DNA from: Candidatus Methylomirabilis oxygeniifera
GTDB lineage: Bacteria > Methylomirabilota > Methylomirabilia > Methylomirabilales > Methylomirabilaceae
NCBI GenBank assembly: GCA_000091165.1
Contig: FP565575.1
Location: 240,001 to 272,000 of the forward strand
DNA: 32,000 bases
Direction: 5' to 3'
A model generated the notes under the pieces. It did no database searches. It was not told the origin of the DNA and saw only the letters and a list, made by a program, of their open reading frames with translations. Position 1 is the stretch's first letter, and every line of letters begins with the position of its first letter. Below are positions 17,299 to 23,389 of the stretch, one piece after another. The position numbers were made by a program, and so were the translations under genes.

Positions 17299-17970
17299 AT
17301 GCATCGAATCGTTGCGTGCATCGTCGCACTCCTGACCATCGGCGCGGCAGGGGTCGTCAGGGGCCAGGAGCTGAAGACTGAGGAGCAGAAGACGTTTTAC
17401 GCCCTAGGGCTCGCGCTCAGCCAGAGTCTCGGCTTGTTCAATCTTAGCGAGGCCGAGCTGGAGTTGGTGAAGTCAGGTCTCGCCGACGGGGTCCTGAATC
17501 GGACGCGGAAGGTCGAGCTGCCCGCGTACATGAGCAAGGTCCAGGAGTTGCAGACGTCGCGTCAGGCCGCCGCCGCTGCCGTCGAGAAGAAGCAGGGCCA
17601 GTCGTTCCTCGACAAGGCCGCCGCCGAGAAGGGGGTAACCAAGACGGCCTCTGGCGTGATCGTCACCACGCTCAAGTCCGGCACCGGACCCTCCCCCGCG
17701 GCCGGCGACACGGTGAAGGTGCACTACACGGGCACCCTGATCGACGGCACCGTCTTCGACAGCTCCGTGCAGCGTGGACAACCGGCCACCTTCCCCCTCA
17801 ACGGCGTGATCAAATGCTGGACCGAAGGCGTCGTCACCATGAAGGTCGGCGGTAAGGCGAAGCTGGTCTGCCCTGCCGACGCGGCCTACGGCGTCCGGGG
17901 GGCGCCCCCGAAAATTAAGCCGGGCGCCACGCTGGTCTTCGACGTGGAACTGCTGGAGATCGTGAAGTAA
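17299..17970 (+). CDS. Secreted FKBP-type peptidyl-prolyl cis-trans isomerase (FkpA/Mip-like)
   Basis: Signal peptide MHRIVACIVALLTIGAAGVVRGQ, a helical N-domain, and the FKBP domain VKVHYTGTLIDGTVFDSS...GATLVFDVELLEIV. Confidence 0.88.
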   Translation: MHRIVACIVALLTIGAAGVVRGQELKTEEQKTFYALGLALSQSLGLFNLSEAELELVKSGLADGVLNRTRKVELPAYMSKVQELQTSRQAAAAAVEKKQGQSFLDKAAAEKGVTKTASGVIVTTLKSGTGPSPAAGDTVKVHYTGTLIDGTVFDSSVQRGQPATFPLNGVIKCWTEGVVTMKVGGKAKLVCPADAAYGVRGAPPKIKPGATLVFDVELLEIVK

Positions 17971-18440
17971 CGTACCTGAGAGCTGCGCCGCGTCAATCTA
18001 GTCGCTTCACCCCGCCTTCCGAGCCAGACATCCGCGCCCGCATGCGCCACCATACGTGCAAGCATCTCCTGTTCTGGCCATGTAGTTCGTACGGCTCGTC
18101 AACCTCTGTCTCGACAAGACGCGTACGCCCACTGCGCCACCCATTCCGGTCGGAAACCGCCCACCTCTTCCGATTAATCTCGGCCAGGCGTTCCGATGCT
18201 GGTGCAGGTTAGTAGTTGTAATCTGTACCGTGATGTCAAGAGGGCGTCGAACTGCCCGGTCGCCGGATTCCAGAGCATCGGGAGACCAGAAAACAGATCG
18301 TAGCAACCGAGGCAGCAGGGGAGTCCAAAGCACAGTTGATTGACTCGGATTTGGTTCGGGCGGCTCGCTGTCGGAGACCGGATAGGCTGACATAGGTGCA
18401 GCGTTTGCCGTCGCCTGCCTTCATACAAATGTCTTGTTAA

Positions 18441-18663
18441 GTGCCAGAAAAGATTATAGAGTTTTGGCCAGCTCCAAGAACGGCTGGTCGAGATAGACCG
18501 ATCAGCATACGCAATGGTTCGACTTGAAAAGTAGACCGATCGAGATCGATGCGGGACAGAGCAATGATGGCGAACGCGTGAGATCGACGAGAGACGGTGC
18601 CGAGCGCGGATCATCATGTGTCGGAAAGCCACCAGGCGCGAGAGGGGGCAGTATGGCAAGTGA
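18441..18663 (+). pseudogene. Degraded BrnT-like (DUF497) toxin gene
   Basis: The family-typical C-terminus ARIIMCRKATRRERGQYGK-stop is in frame 1 (18598-18663). Upstream pieces are scattered over the other frames (KIIEFW..., WFDLKSRPIEIDAGQSNDGERV...) and interrupted by stops at 18496, 18529 and 18565. Confidence 0.5.
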
Positions 18664-18867
18664 GGAGATGAGAAAAGATACGACTTTTCGAAGGGTGTTC
18701 GGGGCAAGTTTTACAGGCCGGGCCTAAAGATCAGCCTTCCCGTGTACCTTGATCAAGAAGCGATGGCCTTTGTACAGCGCATTGCCCGGAAGAAGAAGAC
18801 CGATATCTCGACGGTGGTCAACAAACTGATTCTCACGGACAAGTACCTTGCAGAGGTTATCGACTAA
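18653..18867 (+). pseudogene. BrnA-like (RHH/CopG-type) antitoxin gene with a 1-nt frameshift
   Basis: ATG 18653 (MASEEMRK) is in frame 2. The family-typical YDFSKGVRGKF...ISLPVYLDQEAMAFVQRIARKKKTDISTVVNKLIL body is in frame 1. One extra A in the A4 run 18673-18676 would join them (MRKRYDFSKG). Confidence 0.6.
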
Positions 18868-19267
18868 GGGTACATCTTGACGAACGACCTGCTCCACCAG
18901 ACGCCGGCTAGGTACCTCTGAGCGTGGCTCGCGATGGTCTGCGGTGCCGCCGGTGAGCAGTACGTTGAGCCCACCAGAGACGAAGGAGGCCAGCGCTCGA
19001 AGCCCACTGAGACCCTGGCGCGAGGCGCCGGAGTGTCGGTTAGTGGTACCCAAGAGAACCGCGTTCGCCGTCGAGTGAGTATAGATTATACTCCCGTAAC
19101 CTGCACCCGCTCGAAACCATTTCCGGTTTCGACTCCATGGAGGTACGTAATCTCGAATTACAGGTTGGGCCGGGATCTCATGGGTGGGCTACTTGTAAGA
19201 ACCGAGGAGATTAGAGCGGACAGTTCAACAGTTCAATCCGGATAGTCGAAACAAATAAGCGAGGGTA

Positions 19268-19495
19268 TCAAGGTGTGCAGGATCGCGGGCGCTCCGTCCG
19301 GGCGATATGGCAGCTCAGGGTTTTCAGAAGAGCTGACAGGTCAACGTTTTGGACCTTGACCGAATCTGGGGCTGTCAGTTGGGCGGGGGCGAAATTGAAG
19401 ACCGCGATTACTCCGCCCTCAACCAGTGCGTCGAGGACGGCCTGGGCGTAGTCGCAGGTCACCTTCAAATTGTAGATGCTAGGAGTTAATCCGAC
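19268..19495 (-). pseudogene. rex: C-terminal fragment of a Rex-type redox-sensing repressor
   Basis: VGLTPSIYNLK..VTCDYAQAVLDALVEGGVIAVFNFAPAQLTAPDSVKVQNVDLSALLKTLSCHI aligns by eye with the last roughly 65 aa of Rex (B. subtilis ...[49 protein letters not shown]). The N-terminal winged-helix and most of the Rossmann domain are absent. Confidence 0.6.
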
Positions 19496-19548
19496 AGCCA
19501 GGCAGAATCCTCGCGAAACCCTACAGGATCTCCATCTAACGGCGCACT

Positions 19549-19818
19549 TTAAGCCGCCACCTCTACCCTTGGTTTTACCAGTCGTGATCGGGGTGGGGCG
19601 ACCTTCTCGATCCTGACATGCACCACTGCCTGCCCAGACTCCCGGCGAGCTCTTGCCAACGCAAGGTTTCTCTCGCATAGTTCTTGGTCATCCTCTGGTA
19701 GGAGGACGACTAGGGCGTTTTCCGGGATCTGTCCGGCAACCTCGGGATGCTCAAGGAGGTAGAGATCGAACTCCGTTGACAGTTTCAGATTTTTTGTGAA
19801 CAGCTCTTGGTCTGTCAT
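19549..19818 (-). CDS. Small uncharacterised protein (89 aa), second gene of an ATGA-coupled pair; resembles the DUF5647 family from memory
   Basis: Clean ORF MTDQELFTKNLKLSTEFDLYLLEHPEVAGQIPENALVVLLPEDDQELCERNL... Its ATG (19818-19816) overlaps the stop of the upstream gene (ATGA). Confidence 0.6.
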   Translation of the reverse strand: MTDQELFTKNLKLSTEFDLYLLEHPEVAGQIPENALVVLLPEDDQELCERNLALARARRESGQAVVHVRIEKVAPPRSRLVKPRVEVAA

Positions 19819-20129
19819 GCTCTCTTCCTTTTCAGGTACGCCTCTTTGTACCGTGCCCAGTTCTCGTCGATGTCCTGATCAGCAAACGTCAACGCCTCTC
19901 CCAGGTCTTTGGTGAGCAGGGGGATTTTCTCCACGGTATCATCGGGGCGGATCCTGTCCATATGCGGAAAGCCATGGGCTGTATCGTAGCGAATAACCGG
20001 GCACCAGTTCCCCTCAATGAAGGTCTCATACTGCACCGTAAATTGCTTCACGGCCCCCTGCTCAGTAACGTGCTCATGCCGCTTTCTATCATTCAAAGTC
20101 AGGAGGTAGGTGTGGCGGGTGAGCTTCAT
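19815..20129 (-). CDS. Small uncharacterised protein (104 aa) with a His-rich motif RYDTAHGFPHMD, first gene of the pair
   Basis: ORF from ATG 20129 (MKLTRHTYLL...). The longer track ORF (to 20255) would run through the predicted promoter and repeat copy A. A strong SD, GAGGAGGG (20160-20153), serves a 6-codon uORF whose TGA overlaps this ATG. Confidence 0.55.
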   Translation of the reverse strand: MKLTRHTYLLTLNDRKRHEHVTEQGAVKQFTVQYETFIEGNWCPVIRYDTAHGFPHMDRIRPDDTVEKIPLLTKDLGEALTFADQDIDENWARYKEAYLKRKRA

Positions 20130-20175
20130 CGGGCAGCATCTTTCACAGCGTTCCCTCCTCTCGGAAGTTACTCTA

Positions 20176-20203
20176 ACCTTATTCGATTCAGTGCAAAAGT
20201 CAA
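20176..20203 (-). promoter_or_regulatory. Candidate sigma-70 promoter for the minus-strand gene pair
   Basis: On the minus strand: TTGACT (20203-20198), 16 nt, TAAGGT (20181-20176). Confidence 0.3.
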
Positions 20204-20222
20204 AGAACTTCGTCGTTATGCA

Positions 20223-20376
20223 GATCACACCCCCGTAATCTTGAGTCTGCTGCATTGGTCACAGTGCCCTGTCTCCCCCCCACGCTTGGTTCGCTACCCT
20301 CAATCGCAGCGTTTTGGACCGGCATCCTGCTTACGAGGCAACCGGCGATCATCGACCGGAGTTTGTAGTACATTTG
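20223..20376 (+). repeat. Direct repeat copy A (about 150 bp, non-coding)
   Basis: Hand-aligns with 21605-21756: about 23 mismatches plus one 2-nt gap over the first 137 positions, mostly transitions. Mismatches show no 3-nt periodicity. Confidence 0.85.
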
Positions 20377-20537
20377 GCCCGAAATAGCCACTGAGGCGCA
20401 TCTGCTGGTGGAATAGGTGCCAAAGTTCCATGTTGGGCTAGGATAGATGCGCCTTGAGAGGGCACGCGCCTGGTCCATCACAGCCCATGCTAGTCATGCC
20501 CCGGGGCCAGCCAAATGTGTCCGATGACTATATGTGG

Positions 20538-20566
20538 TTGACATCATATGACTGTAAGTACATAAT
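20538..20566 (+). promoter_or_regulatory. Near-consensus sigma-70 promoter directly abutting the higB-like ATG (leaderless-type layout)
   Basis: TTGACA (20538-20543), 17 nt, CATAAT (20561-20566), with ATG at 20573 only 6 nt after the -10. The palindrome TCATATGA (20544-20551) lies in the spacer. Confidence 0.5.
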
Positions 20567-20572
20567 ATCTGA

Positions 20573-20935
20573 ATGAAGTGGGACATTGAGTTCCATCAGG
20601 ACTTCGATCCCGAGTTTGACGCGCTGCCCGAAGACGTGCAGGACGAAATCCGTGCCCTTGCCGGTGCACTCGAAGCAATAGGTCCCCTGCTCGGTAGGCC
20701 CCGCGTCGATACGCTCAACGGTTCTCGTTACGCGAATATGAAGGAACTGAGGGTCGATGCGTCTGACGGTGTCTGGCGCGTCGCCTTCGCCTTCGATCCC
20801 AGACGCAAGGCCGTTCTTCTGGCTGCTGGGGACAAATCAGGTGTCAGCGAAAAACGATTTTACCGGCAGCTTTTAGAGAAGGCCGACCGGAGATTTGATC
20901 ATCATCTCTCACGCATCAGGAAGGGAAGGGCTTAG
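20573..20935 (+). CDS. RelE/ParE-superfamily toxin (HigB/Gp49-like)
   Basis: 120 aa. GRPRVDTLNGSRYANMKELRV...GVWRVAFAFDPRRKAVLLAAGDKSGVSEKRFYRQLLEKADRRFDHHL, followed 3 nt later by an XRE-type partner. Confidence 0.75.
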   Translation: MKWDIEFHQDFDPEFDALPEDVQDEIRALAGALEAIGPLLGRPRVDTLNGSRYANMKELRVDASDGVWRVAFAFDPRRKAVLLAAGDKSGVSEKRFYRQLLEKADRRFDHHLSRIRKGRA

Positions 20936-20937
20936 CC

Positions 20938-21299
20938 ATGGCGATCACACTGAAAGACAAAATGAAGGACCTCAGCCCCGCTCGGGGAAAGGCATCGAAG
21001 CGCGTACAGCAGAGCTGGTGAAGGAGCACATGACCTTACAGGAACTGCGGCGCGCCCGTAAGCTGACGCAGGTCAGAGTGGCTAAAGAACTCGGTATTAC
21101 CCAGGACAGCGTGTCGCGCCTTGAAAAGCGCAGCGACCTCCTGCTGTCCACGCTACGGAAGACTGTCCAGGCGATGGGCGGGACGCTGTCTCTTGTCGCG
21201 GAATTCCCTGACCGCCCGCCGGTCGCCCTGTCCGGCATCGCCGAAGACGATCCGACGCCCAAACCGGCAGGCCGGAAAGACGCGCACATCCATGCTTAG
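20938..21299 (+). CDS. HigA-like XRE-family HTH antitoxin, apparently frameshifted near its 5' end
   Basis: ATG 20938 (MAITLKDKMKDLSPAR, frame 1) stops at 21019. The body KGIEARTAELVKEHMTLQELRRARKLTQVRVAKELGITQDSVSRLEKRSDLLLSTLRKTVQAMGGTLSLVAEFPDRPPVAL is in frame 3. One extra G in GGGG 20984-20987 joins them. Internal starts GTG 21018 or ATG 21030 (after AAGGAG) could still give an HTH-only product. Confidence 0.65.
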
Positions 21300-21486
21300 A
21301 GGCCGGCAGACGAGGCGAAACGAAGGACAATAGGGACAGCGACTATTAAAATGAGAAACGATAAGAACGCCGACCGTCAAAATCAGCTGCCGCGCTTTTC
21401 ACGATGGGCCAATTTTGCGGTTGGCGGTAGTAGGCCGCTTTGTACGTGATTCGGACCCTCGCCCACGTCGGGGGTGAAGGCTAGGA

Positions 21487-21525
21487 CCCGTTGATCTCGG
21501 TGGGATTATCAAAGAGATCAACGGG
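21487..21525. other. Perfect 12-bp inverted repeat with a 15-nt loop
   Basis: CCCGTTGATCTC (21487-21498) ggtgggattatcaaa GAGATCAACGGG (21514-21525). No flanking T tract on either strand. Confidence 0.7.
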
Positions 21526-21604
21526 AGGCCTCTTGGGAGCCGCACGTGAGGCGCCAGAGTGGAAAATTGGTGATACTCACGCGCCCGCCACCGAGTGAGG
21601 TGTG

Positions 21605-21756
21605 GATTACACCCCCGTAATCTTGAGCCTCTCGCCTTGGTCGCAGTGCCCTATTTCCCCTACGCTCGGTTTACTACCCTTCATCGAGGTGTCTTGGACC
21701 GGTATCCTGCTTGCGAGGCAACCGGCGATCATCGATTGGAATGGGTGGTGGATTTG
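21605..21756 (+). repeat. Direct repeat copy B (about 150 bp)
   Basis: See copy A. The 5' 23 nt (GATYACACCCCCGTAATCTTGAG) and the 3' roughly 42 nt (TTGGACCGGYATCCTGCTTRCGAGGCAACCGGCGATCATCGA) are the best conserved parts. Confidence 0.85.
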
Positions 21757-21871
21757 ATCGGGATACGCATCCTCAAAAGAAGCACTGCTGAATCATGTAT
21801 GGACCGAGCATGGACAGAGTGTGGACGCAGGCGACGGGTCGAGGGGAGCCGGACGGCTCACTGGCACCAAC

Positions 21872-21903
21872 AAAAAATCCTATCCCCGAAAAGAGATAGG
21901 ATT
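21872..21903 (-). terminator. Rho-independent terminator of ahcY
   Basis: Minus strand: AATCCTATC (21903-21895), 10-nt loop, GATAGGATT (21884-21876) running into TTTTTTGTT. Additional palindromes ATAGGATCCTAT (21911-21922) and GGCAAT-cta-ATTGCC (21924-21938) lie between the stop codon and the terminator. Confidence 0.7.
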
Positions 21904-21940
21904 CAAAGGGATAGGATCCTATAGGCAATCTAATTGCCGA

Positions 21941-23389
21941 TTAATAACGATAATGATCCGGCTTATAGGGACCATCCGGAGAGATTCCGATATATTGAGC
22001 CTGCTTGGGACTCAACCGGGTCAGCTTGATTCCCAGTTTTTCCAAATGCAGTCGAGCGACTTCCTCATCCAGCTTTTTCGGTAAGGTATACACACCTATG
22101 GGTCGCGGATTGTTCCACAGATCGATCTGGGCCAAGGTCTGGTTGGTAAATGAATTCGACATGACGAAACTGGGATGACCTGTGGCACAACCCAGATTGA
22201 CAAGACGTCCTTGAGCCAGAAGATAGAGGGTCTTCCCATTGGGGAGTACATATTTATCAACCTGGGGCTTGATGTTGACGTGTTGCACACCCGGAAGGGA
22301 TTTCAATCCGGCCACATCGATTTCGCTGTCGAAATGCCCGATATTGCAAATGATACTTTCATCTTTCATCATCATCATGTGATCGACGGTAATGACATCC
22401 ACGTTACCGGTGGCGGTGACAAAAATATTTCCCACCCTGGCGGCATCTTCCATTACGGTGACTTCAAAGCCTTCCATCGCCGCTTGTAAAGCGTTGATGG
22501 GATCAATCTCCGTCACGATCACGCGCGCCCCGTAACTGCGCATGCTATGCGCGCACCCCTTCCCGACGTCTCCGTAGCCGGCTACGACCACCACTTTACC
22601 TGCGATCATCACATCGGTGGCGCGTTTGATACCGTCGGCCAATGATTCACGGCATCCGTACAGATTATCGAACTTGCTCTTGGTGACACTGTCGTTCACA
22701 TTAATGGCCGGCACCAACAGCTCCCCTTTGTCCATCATCTGATATAAACGATGGACGCCGGTGGTGGTTTCCTCCGACACGCCTTTCCACTCTTTGCTTA
22801 TACGGGTCCAAAGACCAGGATGGGACTTCAGGGTTTTTCTCAACAAGTTGAGAATACAGCCTTCCTCTTCGCTTTCCGGCGTTCGATCCAGGAAAGACGC
22901 GTCTTTTTCGGCTTTGACTCCCCAATGAATGAGCAGAGTAGCATCGCCACCATCATCCACAATAAGCTGGGGTCCCAGGACCTCACCGTGTTTGCCGGGG
23001 TGAACCAGCGCTCTAAAAGTACAGTCCCAATATTCTTCCAGGGTTTCACCTTTCCAGGCGAATACGGGAACTCCAGCCACAGCAATGGCTGCCGCCGCAT
23101 GGTCTTGGGTTGAAAAGATATTGCAAGAGGCCCAGCGAACATCCGCACCCAGGTCGACCAGGGTTTCGATCAATACGGCTGTTTGAATGGTCATATGCAG
23201 CGAACCGGTGATCCGGACGCCTTTGAGGGATTTCAATTTCCCGTACTTTTCACGCACCGCCATCAGGCCGGGCATTTCTTTTTCGGCGATTTCAATCTCT
23301 TTGCGACCAAAATCGGCCAAGGACAAATCCGCCACTTTGAAATCAGGCAAAGAGGATACGTTTTTTTCTGTTAACGTCTGCATGTTCAT
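21941..23389 (-). CDS. ahcY: Adenosylhomocysteinase (long form with insertion segment)
   Basis: [44 protein letters not shown]..., NAD motif [14 protein letters not shown] and C-terminal KPDHYRY. Start taken at ATG 23389 (or 23383). The track ORF extends in frame to 23527 through the leader. Hand GC counts of three 60-nt lines gave 52%, 37% and 53%, versus 58% for a line of the neighbouring GT gene. Confidence 0.93.

Follow-up and report, generated by a model that had tools for sequence, protein, structure and literature searches.

The 32,000-nt stretch of DNA analysed here (the window) covers positions 240001-272000 of the complete 2.75-Mb genome of Candidatus Methylomirabilis oxygeniifera (G000:C1:240001-272000). 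It contains a variable region, with an FKBP isomerase gene on the left and ahcY on the right, in which a 29-bp palindromic site recurs. We consider this site to be, probably, a recombination joint between swappable gene cassettes across the genus Methylomirabilis. An initial annotation, made from the letters of the window, had pointed to direct repeats of about 150 bp on both sides of a HigBA toxin–antitoxin module. The functional element is the 29-bp palindrome at the 5' edge of this repeat and not the 150 bp as a unit. Feature coordinates below are window positions unless a genome position is named; G000 is the genome of the window, and the other G numbers are its 19 relatives of the genus (20 genomes with G000).

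The consensus of the site is GTGyA-GATTAC-ACCCCC-GTAATs-TrCACT, a palindrome with inverted arms of 11–12 bp around an asymmetric, near-invariant 6-bp spacer. Written as GTGyAGATTAC / ACCCCC / GTAATsTrCAC, it has the general layout of a tyrosine-recombinase core site, for which an asymmetric overlap of 6–8 bp is characteristic. The 18-mer core was found with two mismatches or fewer in 14 of the 20 genus genomes, at up to 21 copies per genome, and a reversed-pattern control gave two matches across the same 20 genomes. G000 holds five to seven copies. Outside the genus, the core with one mismatch or fewer was missing from the roughly 230 genomes of the phylum that were searched, one stray match excepted, and the site had no match among plasmids, phages, and IMG/VR viral contigs. 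The exact 21-mer is present in at least 120 metagenome contigs.

The limits of the conserved unit can be read from its junctions. The left-flank and right-flank types, clustered over 63 distinct junctions, pair freely. Where the flanks are unrelated (1660 junction pairs), identity stays at a background of about 0.25 as far as position −6, reaches 0.32–1.0 over positions −5 to +23, and returns to about 0.25 from +25; this profile sets the conserved unit at 29 bp. Pairs that share only the left flank or only the right flank drop in similarity at the same two edges. The initial annotation had supposed that the element marks boundaries between successive modules, and this is supported: junction similarity breaks at the edges of the site, and the two kinds of flank combine freely. 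The spacer region ACCCCCG (positions 6–12) is 0.90–1.00 identical across the 1660 pairs, which is above the arms and is the overlap identity expected between recombining sites. Mismatches in the arms are uncompensated (GATTAC...GTAATG is common), and the spacer is the best-conserved part of the site; this fits recognition by a protein and matching of spacers, not a hairpin under selection.

Neighbouring sites have the same orientation without exception (18 of 18 pairs in the genus genomes and 47 of 47 in metagenome loci) at a spacing of 0.46–9.3 kb, and cargo genes lie on either strand despite this uniform orientation. The sites are confined to accessory-gene hot spots, namely the FKBP–ahcY region of the window, the region downstream of rex, and the region downstream of a CoA-transferase gene. 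Toxin–antitoxin cargo includes HigBA, BrnTA, ParE-type, and DUF7718/DUF5647 pairs; the other cassettes carry an SbcCD-like pair, Fic, a UvrD-like helicase, an AMP-binding enzyme, Vgb-lyase-like proteins, and large proteins of unknown function. A recurrent neighbour gene was sought among the genus loci, and none was found.

The 150-bp repeat is a part of a modular junction. Its two copies, A (20223-20376) and B (21605-21756), are direct repeats with 79.9% identity over 154 nt (blastn, E = 7e-32), in agreement with the approximately 80% estimated before by hand; a repeat search reports the match as two pieces, 56 nt with 84% identity and 100 nt with 80%, on either side of a 2-nt indel. The conserved ends and the variable centre described earlier are seen in the alignment. 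The copies differ by 1–2-nt indels, so the repeat and the left arm described below are non-coding, as had been assumed for the repeat, and a coding role was rejected for both. Whole-genome searches with nhmmer and blastn placed copy B within a composite of about 440 nt (21320-21760), of which it forms the 3' third. The genome has one more full copy of this composite, 73% identical, at positions 522866-523300. Other copies in G000 are partial: copy A has the right part only, whereas copy D (18997-19108) and the copies at 1.757 and 1.761 Mb have the left part only. All of them overlap at GATTAC-ACCCCC-GTAATC. In the 19 relatives, matches to the composite end at query positions 301–309 or start at 282–286, that is, on either side of the palindrome. 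The repeat is thus not a local duplication unique to two loci, which the initial annotation had named as the finding that would speak against it; whole-genome blastn and the relatives revealed a genus-wide family.

Three sites can be noted in the variable region; all features of this region lie on the forward strand, except for the rex fragment and the DUF pair named below. Site D (19079-19107, gtata-GATTATACTCCCGTAACC-tgcacc) is preceded by a conserved non-coding left arm, termed L (copy D, 18997-19078; nhmmer, hidden Markov model positions 209-322, E = 6e-11), and is followed by a right arm of type R5 (19108-19262). Site A (20218-20246, atgca-GATCACACCCCCGTAATC-ttgagt) is followed by a right arm of type R1 (20247-20376), which is the remainder of repeat copy A. 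Site B (21600-21628, gtgtg-GATTACACCCCCGTAATC-ttgagc) has a perfect 18-nt core and lies between the second left arm (copy B, 21423-21599) and the second R1 arm (21629-21756). The stretch 19084-19107 had been regarded as a possible third, partial copy of the repeat. It does match the 5' end of the repeat, with three mismatches in the 18-nt core; however, it belongs to site D and shares with the repeat the palindromic site alone, and it is preceded by a different conserved arm, present also in copy B, so the 150-bp unit has no partial copy here.

The cassette between sites D and A was compared with the relatives. It contains a fragment of rex (19271-19468, reverse strand) that comprises residues 157–222 only (tblastn, 79% identity) and matches the genome's own rex at genome positions 2312539-2312748 (blastn), as well as the overlapping genes of DUF5647 (19549-19818) and DUF7718 (19815-20129) on the reverse strand (Pfam, E = 7e-28 and 3e-32), with a toxin–antitoxin-like layout. 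In G009:C4, the order is nuoN, complete rex, a degenerate site, DUF7718, and DUF5647; in G004:C190, it is rex, the R5 arm, a site, a cassette, and another site; and in G001:C76, it is rex, R5, a site, the DUF pair, and a rex fragment. The same R5 arm follows the cores beside complete rex in G004:C190 and G001:C76, and R5 is in the relatives the native intergenic flank between rex and a site. Read on the same strand, the window has site A, DUF7718, DUF5647, the rex fragment (residues 157–222), R5, and site D. In terms of gene order, this arrangement is that of the rex locus, circularised and re-opened at the site. At the FKBP–ahcY locus, the rex-derived cassette has no other homology with its surroundings. 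We take this circular permutation as the best sequence-level sign that a circular cassette may have integrated at the site. It also follows from the permutation that at least the R5 arm is a chromosomal flank carried along.

The right border of the region was compared as well. Site B with its R1 arm and the flank beside ahcY is orthologous in G000, G011:C11, and G019:C10 (in the last of these, the single R1 is in the same place), and the left neighbour is different in all three. HigBA (20516-21322 in this comparison) is 94% identical in G012:C102, where it has different neighbours. The HigBA unit is missing from G019, where the only R1 resembles that of copy A over its full length and is followed by the right flank of copy B. 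This places the end points of the HigBA difference within the conserved 3' block of R1, and homologous recombination between two R1 copies explains the difference. The presence or absence of HigBA was accordingly rejected as proof of site-specific excision, being evidence for homologous recombination only.

A candidate enzyme was found in the metagenome loci. Their 748 open reading frames (ORFs) include only two distinct families of tyrosine recombinases. One family is a 244-aa protein, 75% identical to the product of a G015:C35 gene, and a site is adjacent to the gene in both places. A large protein search placed it in a tight clade (70–93% identity, all members 244 aa) within a very large family of integrases of 279–293 aa. 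The catalytic motifs R...HxxR...H...Y are present. In ten of ten independent loci of this clade, a site lies 35–57 nt past the stop codon; its orientation is the same in every case, and the DNA on its far side is unrelated between loci. The spacer of seven of these ten sites is GGGGGT, the complement of ACCCCC. The other three have the spacer TGGTTG, which is that of a second palindrome type described below (motif2), and their proteins (P0010, P0012, and P0013) are only 70–75% identical to the query; two recombinases at canonical-spacer loci are about as divergent (75–76%). Among three examined relatives at 55% identity, from other sources, two have GATTAnC-N4-6-AAATC after the gene. Possibly, the wider 279-aa family, which occurs in Syntrophia-like bacteria and Asgard archaea, may run similar systems with GATTAC-type sites.

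The reading frame of the clade has a distinctive feature. The first approximately 35 residues, homologous to the N-terminus of the 279-aa relatives, are encoded in a different frame, and the switch occurs at a conserved run of seven adenines (A7) within CTAAAAAAATTTG. This run is present in every locus checked among relatives and metagenome loci (L260:2524-2660, L269:2904-3030, L270:2651-2780, L272:981-1121, and L058:6270-6386), and removal of one A from it gives a protein of the 279-aa type. This suggests that the run is a candidate site of programmed slippage or frameshifting, which could serve as a throttle on integrase production.

Taken together, a scheme of cassette exchange can be proposed. 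A cassette would exit as a circle with one site and, by exchanging strands within the spacer, would enter a different site. Each joint would then be a hybrid of the left flank of the upstream cassette, the site, and the right flank of the downstream cassette. The cassettes are arranged one behind another, head to tail, at a small number of hot spots on the chromosome. The 150-bp repeat is the R1 right-hand flank of the site, and two joints that share this flank bracket HigBA by happenstance. The likely enzyme would be the small tyrosine recombinase, a 244-aa ORF (about 279 aa after recoding at the A7 run), itself cassette-borne. Its gene is missing from G000, so the array of the window is probably a frozen record. 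It would now be changeable only by ordinary homologous recombination between the repeated arms, and this is how HigBA was lost, or was never doubled, in G019.

Several facts weigh against this scheme. HigBA, the sole presence/absence polymorphism at the locus, has its end points in R1 and not in the site. The long conserved arms (about 200 nt for L and about 130 nt for R1) are not accounted for, and any role of the arms in the exchange would be putative. The crossover point inside the site is not mappable from sequence. Among the 20 genus genomes, only one has an intact gene of the candidate recombinase; G011 has a fragment of it and G000 has none. Moreover, any cassette gene keeps its bounding site, as the DUF pair does across five genomes, so the linkage of recombinase and site alone is not proof of a cognate enzyme. 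Given this caution and the rarity of the intact gene in the genus, our confidence that a recombinase of the 244-aa clade acts on the 29-bp site is evenly balanced between yes and no.

The mosaic and modular character of the junctions would also be expected if the palindrome were a dispersed repeat of the repetitive extragenic palindrome (REP) or bacterial interspersed mosaic element (BIME) kind, which spreads alone into intergenic DNA, for example by a REP-associated tyrosine transposase (RAYT) type of enzyme, and then provides general recombination with a short stretch of homology or a fragile point; the arms would then be neighbouring mosaic motifs, as in E. coli BIMEs and pneumococcal BOX repeats, which share with the junctions a modular mosaic of short conserved blocks between genes. 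G000 owns a REP–RAYT-like system for another motif, which starts the module at 21329 described below, and the HigBA indel with its homologous recombination in an arm would also agree with this. Nevertheless, we regard it as unlikely. REP and REPIN–RAYT systems have tens to hundreds of copies and a repeat-flanked RAYT, whereas the site has five to seven copies in G000 and at most about 21 in any genome, none of them near the three Y1-transposase genes of G000, and no RAYT is linked to the palindrome. In addition, all 65 of 65 adjacent pairs are strictly co-oriented, the sites are confined to accessory hot spots, the circular permutation pivots on the site, and a tyrosine recombinase is linked to it. 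Still less likely, in our opinion, is that host XerC and XerD use the palindrome as a dif-like site, as in the dif modules of Acinetobacter or in integrative mobile elements exploiting Xer (IMEX). XerC (346 bits, beside hslVU) and XerD are the only intact tyrosine recombinases of G000, which has in addition one large serine recombinase, and no site was found near any recombinase or Y1-transposase gene of this genome. Both Xer proteins are present in nearly every genome of the genus, with the XerD type missing in G003, G012, and G015 and the XerC type in G002, G005, G013, and G014. The site has the 11-6/8-11 layout of Xer sites, with arms and a spacer like the approximately 28-bp sites that bound dif modules, and these modules often carry toxin–antitoxin genes, including those of the HigBA type (PMC6449649, PMC13141974). 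They are shuffled between replicons (PMC6449649, PMC13141974), and module shuffling is common to both systems. However, pdif sites resemble the host dif, alternate in orientation, and are mainly plasmid-borne, whereas the sites described here are chromosomal, all co-oriented, linked to a dedicated recombinase, and unlike the host dif. The latter (ACGTCGTATAA-GAGAGA-TTATGTCAACT, genome position 1169464, at the GC-skew maximum) shares with the site 5/11 and 7/11 arm positions and no spacer; a dif mimic was rejected on this ground.

A structured non-coding RNA repeated at module borders, such as a small RNA, a leader, or an element of the 3' untranslated region, is very unlikely. The initial annotation had listed a repeated structured RNA among the candidates and had proposed pairing between the 5' and 3' ends of the repeat. 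This helix does appear in the RNAalifold fold, where a long imperfect hairpin runs through R1 with 94% of cells paired and several transitions that preserve G-U pairs; however, the pairing has no statistical support, as shuffled controls equal the observed values, and there are no compensatory pairs. The z-scores of R1 are −0.3 to +1.2 on both strands, i.e., it folds no better than its shuffles. For the left arm, the consensus fold is weak: its energy is −9 kcal/mol, and the covariation term is positive. Most z-scores of this arm exceed −2, and the two strands give similar values; the value of −3.5 for the left arm of copy B is due to a private perfect hairpin. A search of Rfam returned nothing relevant at the gathering cut-off or at E <= 10, and the orientation of the sites is independent of that of the genes. 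Rfam, RNAalifold, and the shuffles therefore gave neither a supported fold nor covariation. The least likely reading of those considered is a non-canonical integron, whose integron integrase (IntI) of the genus would use the joints as unusual attC sites, the arrays being similar to clusters of attC sites lacking integrases (CALINs). The arrays are indeed co-oriented and have toxin–antitoxin cargo, integron integrases score above the curated cut-off in G010 and G018 and are partial in G008, G009, and G011, and G000 has seven C-terminal relics of IntI. However, no pairs of RYYYAAC/GTTRRRY boxes (at least 6/7 complementary, 50–150 nt apart) were found on either strand of 17900-22000. The examined integrase loci, intact in G018:C37, G010:C32, and G010:C75 and interrupted or partial in G011:C37 and G008:C27, have neither the site nor an arm, and the genomes with an intact IntI (G010 and G018) have no consensus sites. 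No array adjoining intI, attI, and the Pc promoter is present in G000, where the IntI relics are distant. The earlier suggestion of an attC-like cassette junction is therefore retained as to the cassette junction and not as to attC, since the R''/R' boxes are missing and the integrase loci of the relatives are without the site.

Further candidates were tried for the repeat itself. The earlier proposal of a miniature inverted-repeat transposable element did not hold, because no terminal inverted repeats or target duplications bound the unit, the flanks are mosaic, and the copies, which are left-only, right-only, or both, break at the internal palindrome and have no common outer ends. A template repeat–variable repeat pair of a diversity-generating retroelement was dropped, as the copies do not differ specifically at adenines and the vicinity lacks a reverse transcriptase. 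A tRNA or tmRNA target gene was rejected, with none present in the window.

The recombination joint of swappable cassettes remains our preferred explanation of the 29-bp site, and it is worth comparing it with the known systems. Integrons are the textbook dedicated device of gene capture, and the dif modules of Acinetobacter are the main other case of modules shuffled by short sites. The cassettes of integrons, including sedentary chromosomal integrons and CALINs, are like those described here in forming co-oriented arrays of small, unrelated, swappable units, in the frequency of toxin–antitoxin cassettes, in the many arrays without a recombinase, and in the use of a tyrosine recombinase. Unlike the 57–141-nt attC, which is conserved in structure, variable in sequence, and has R/L boxes, the site here is a sequence-conserved 29-bp double-strand palindrome with a fixed spacer. 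After exchange, the site is left with a flank on each side. A fixed intI–attI–Pc platform is missing, and a genome has several hot spots. The cargo genes occupy both strands and have promoters of their own, and the candidate recombinase is small, cassette-borne, and without the IntI signature (33 bits against a cut-off of 265). The accretion of integrative elements and of cis-mobilizable elements (CIMEs), as well as PAISt excision at 8-bp palindromes, are similar in having tandem arrays separated by att sites (PMC5704250, PMC4057263). Site-specific integration beside resident elements produces such tandem arrays, and elements without their own integrase persist in them (PMC5704250, PMC4057263). 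These elements are, however, of kilobases to hundreds of kilobases and use one attB in a conserved gene, whereas the units here are single operons of 0.5–9 kb with many sites per array. Our system works like an integron or a dif-module array but belongs to neither by the features listed above. The literature search returned general reviews and papers on dif modules and PAISt, and no description of this site system. The full proposal has about equal prospects of proving right or wrong: an integron-like gene-capture system with a 29-bp ACCCCC-spacer site, a dedicated mobile-cassette recombinase that needs A7 recoding, and stacks at multiple hot spots that trade toxin–antitoxin, defence, and accessory genes.

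If this is true, it would be a third mechanistically distinct system, which would mean that cassette-style gene exchange evolved repeatedly; here the host is an uncultured, biogeochemically important methane oxidiser, and the parts would be a simple double-strand 29-bp site and a compact recombinase. The assembly of toxin–antitoxin and defence islands in these small genomes would thereby be explained, and the defined pair of site and enzyme could become a compact tool for recombination. In the annotation of Methylomirabilis genomes and metagenomes, the site shows exactly where accessory cassettes begin and end.

The remaining features of the variable region are as follows. At its left edge, a pattern match revealed a palindrome of the second type, motif2 (CAGGTTAGTAGTTGTAATCTGTAC, 18205-18228), which shares its arms with the core and has the spacer GTAGTTG. 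Synteny with G019 and G011 stops at 18228-18240. The same segment precedes an intact brnTA pair in G007:C20. In the window, a decayed BrnT/BrnA cassette body (18441-18867) lies upstream of the left arm of copy D; intact BrnT/BrnA is located in G007:C20 and G001:C39 between the same boundary segment and a junction of left arm, core, and R1. Between sites A and B, the HigB-like gene (Gp49, 20573-20935) and the helix-turn-helix (HTH) antitoxin occupy 20573-21299 (Pfam and the ORF table). Within 20939-21050, the frame of the HigA-like antitoxin is broken near 20985: the ATG at 20939 meets a stop, and the HTH domain is in a frame open from 20895.

Downstream of HigBA, a "5' module" (21320-21422) consists of a REP-like motif AATAGGGACAGCGACTATT (21329-21347) and a terminator-like hairpin and belongs to a separate repeat family. 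Its opening motif, AATAGGGACAG(C/A)(G/C)ACTATT, is at the point where the homology of HigBA with G012 ends. There are 13 copies of this motif in the genome, with several different continuations, and two inverted copies of it, at genome positions 2396455 and 2397185, flank a Y1-transposase (RAYT-like) gene (2396545-2396880). The number of copies and this inverted pair look like a REP–RAYT system apart from the 29-bp site.

The seven IntI relics of G000 comprise the last approximately 50 codons of the integron integrase and are located at genome positions 1430515, 541819, 1877066, 1260954, 1889821, 1086811, and 95160. Five of them start at the same codon (TTTGCCAC..., FATH...); the two at 1889821 and 95160 differ at this point. 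Such a common break point suggests that a site-specific event, and not random decay, was at work. Promoter-like DNA follows each relic, and similar C-terminal relics can be found across the genus.

Elsewhere in G000 (L014, genome positions 1756816-1763082), a 1269-aa ORF without a Pfam match lies between two copies of left arm and site; it is a possible defence cassette, as it is directly downstream of genes of a UvrD-like helicase and an ABC/SMC-type ATPase. In G015:C47 (L061, 3703-7958), a junction of left arm and site is followed within 1.2 kb by an SRAP-like fragment and tyrosine recombinases of 368 and 659 aa. These two adjacent recombinases, 1.2 kb from the site, were rejected as candidate enzymes, having no recurrent link with it; possibly, a larger element is integrated at the site there. 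In an unrelated organism (L266, ENA ERZ25039515 contig_8623), a relative of the 279-aa integrases is accompanied by two copies of a 281-aa integrase, and neighbour genes of 148 and 158 aa are repeated, which hints that the wider integrase family also forms repeated units.

Variants of the site itself can also be noted. A variant-spacer class (ACYATC) in genomes without consensus sites was discarded, as it comprised only single decayed copies. At many sites of the R3/R4 type (e.g., L114:2290-2360 and L052:676-750), motif2 follows 16 nt on, with the same arms and the spacer GTGGTTG. It is effectively an inverted variant of the site, and in three integrase loci, the integrase gene lies between the core site and motif2.

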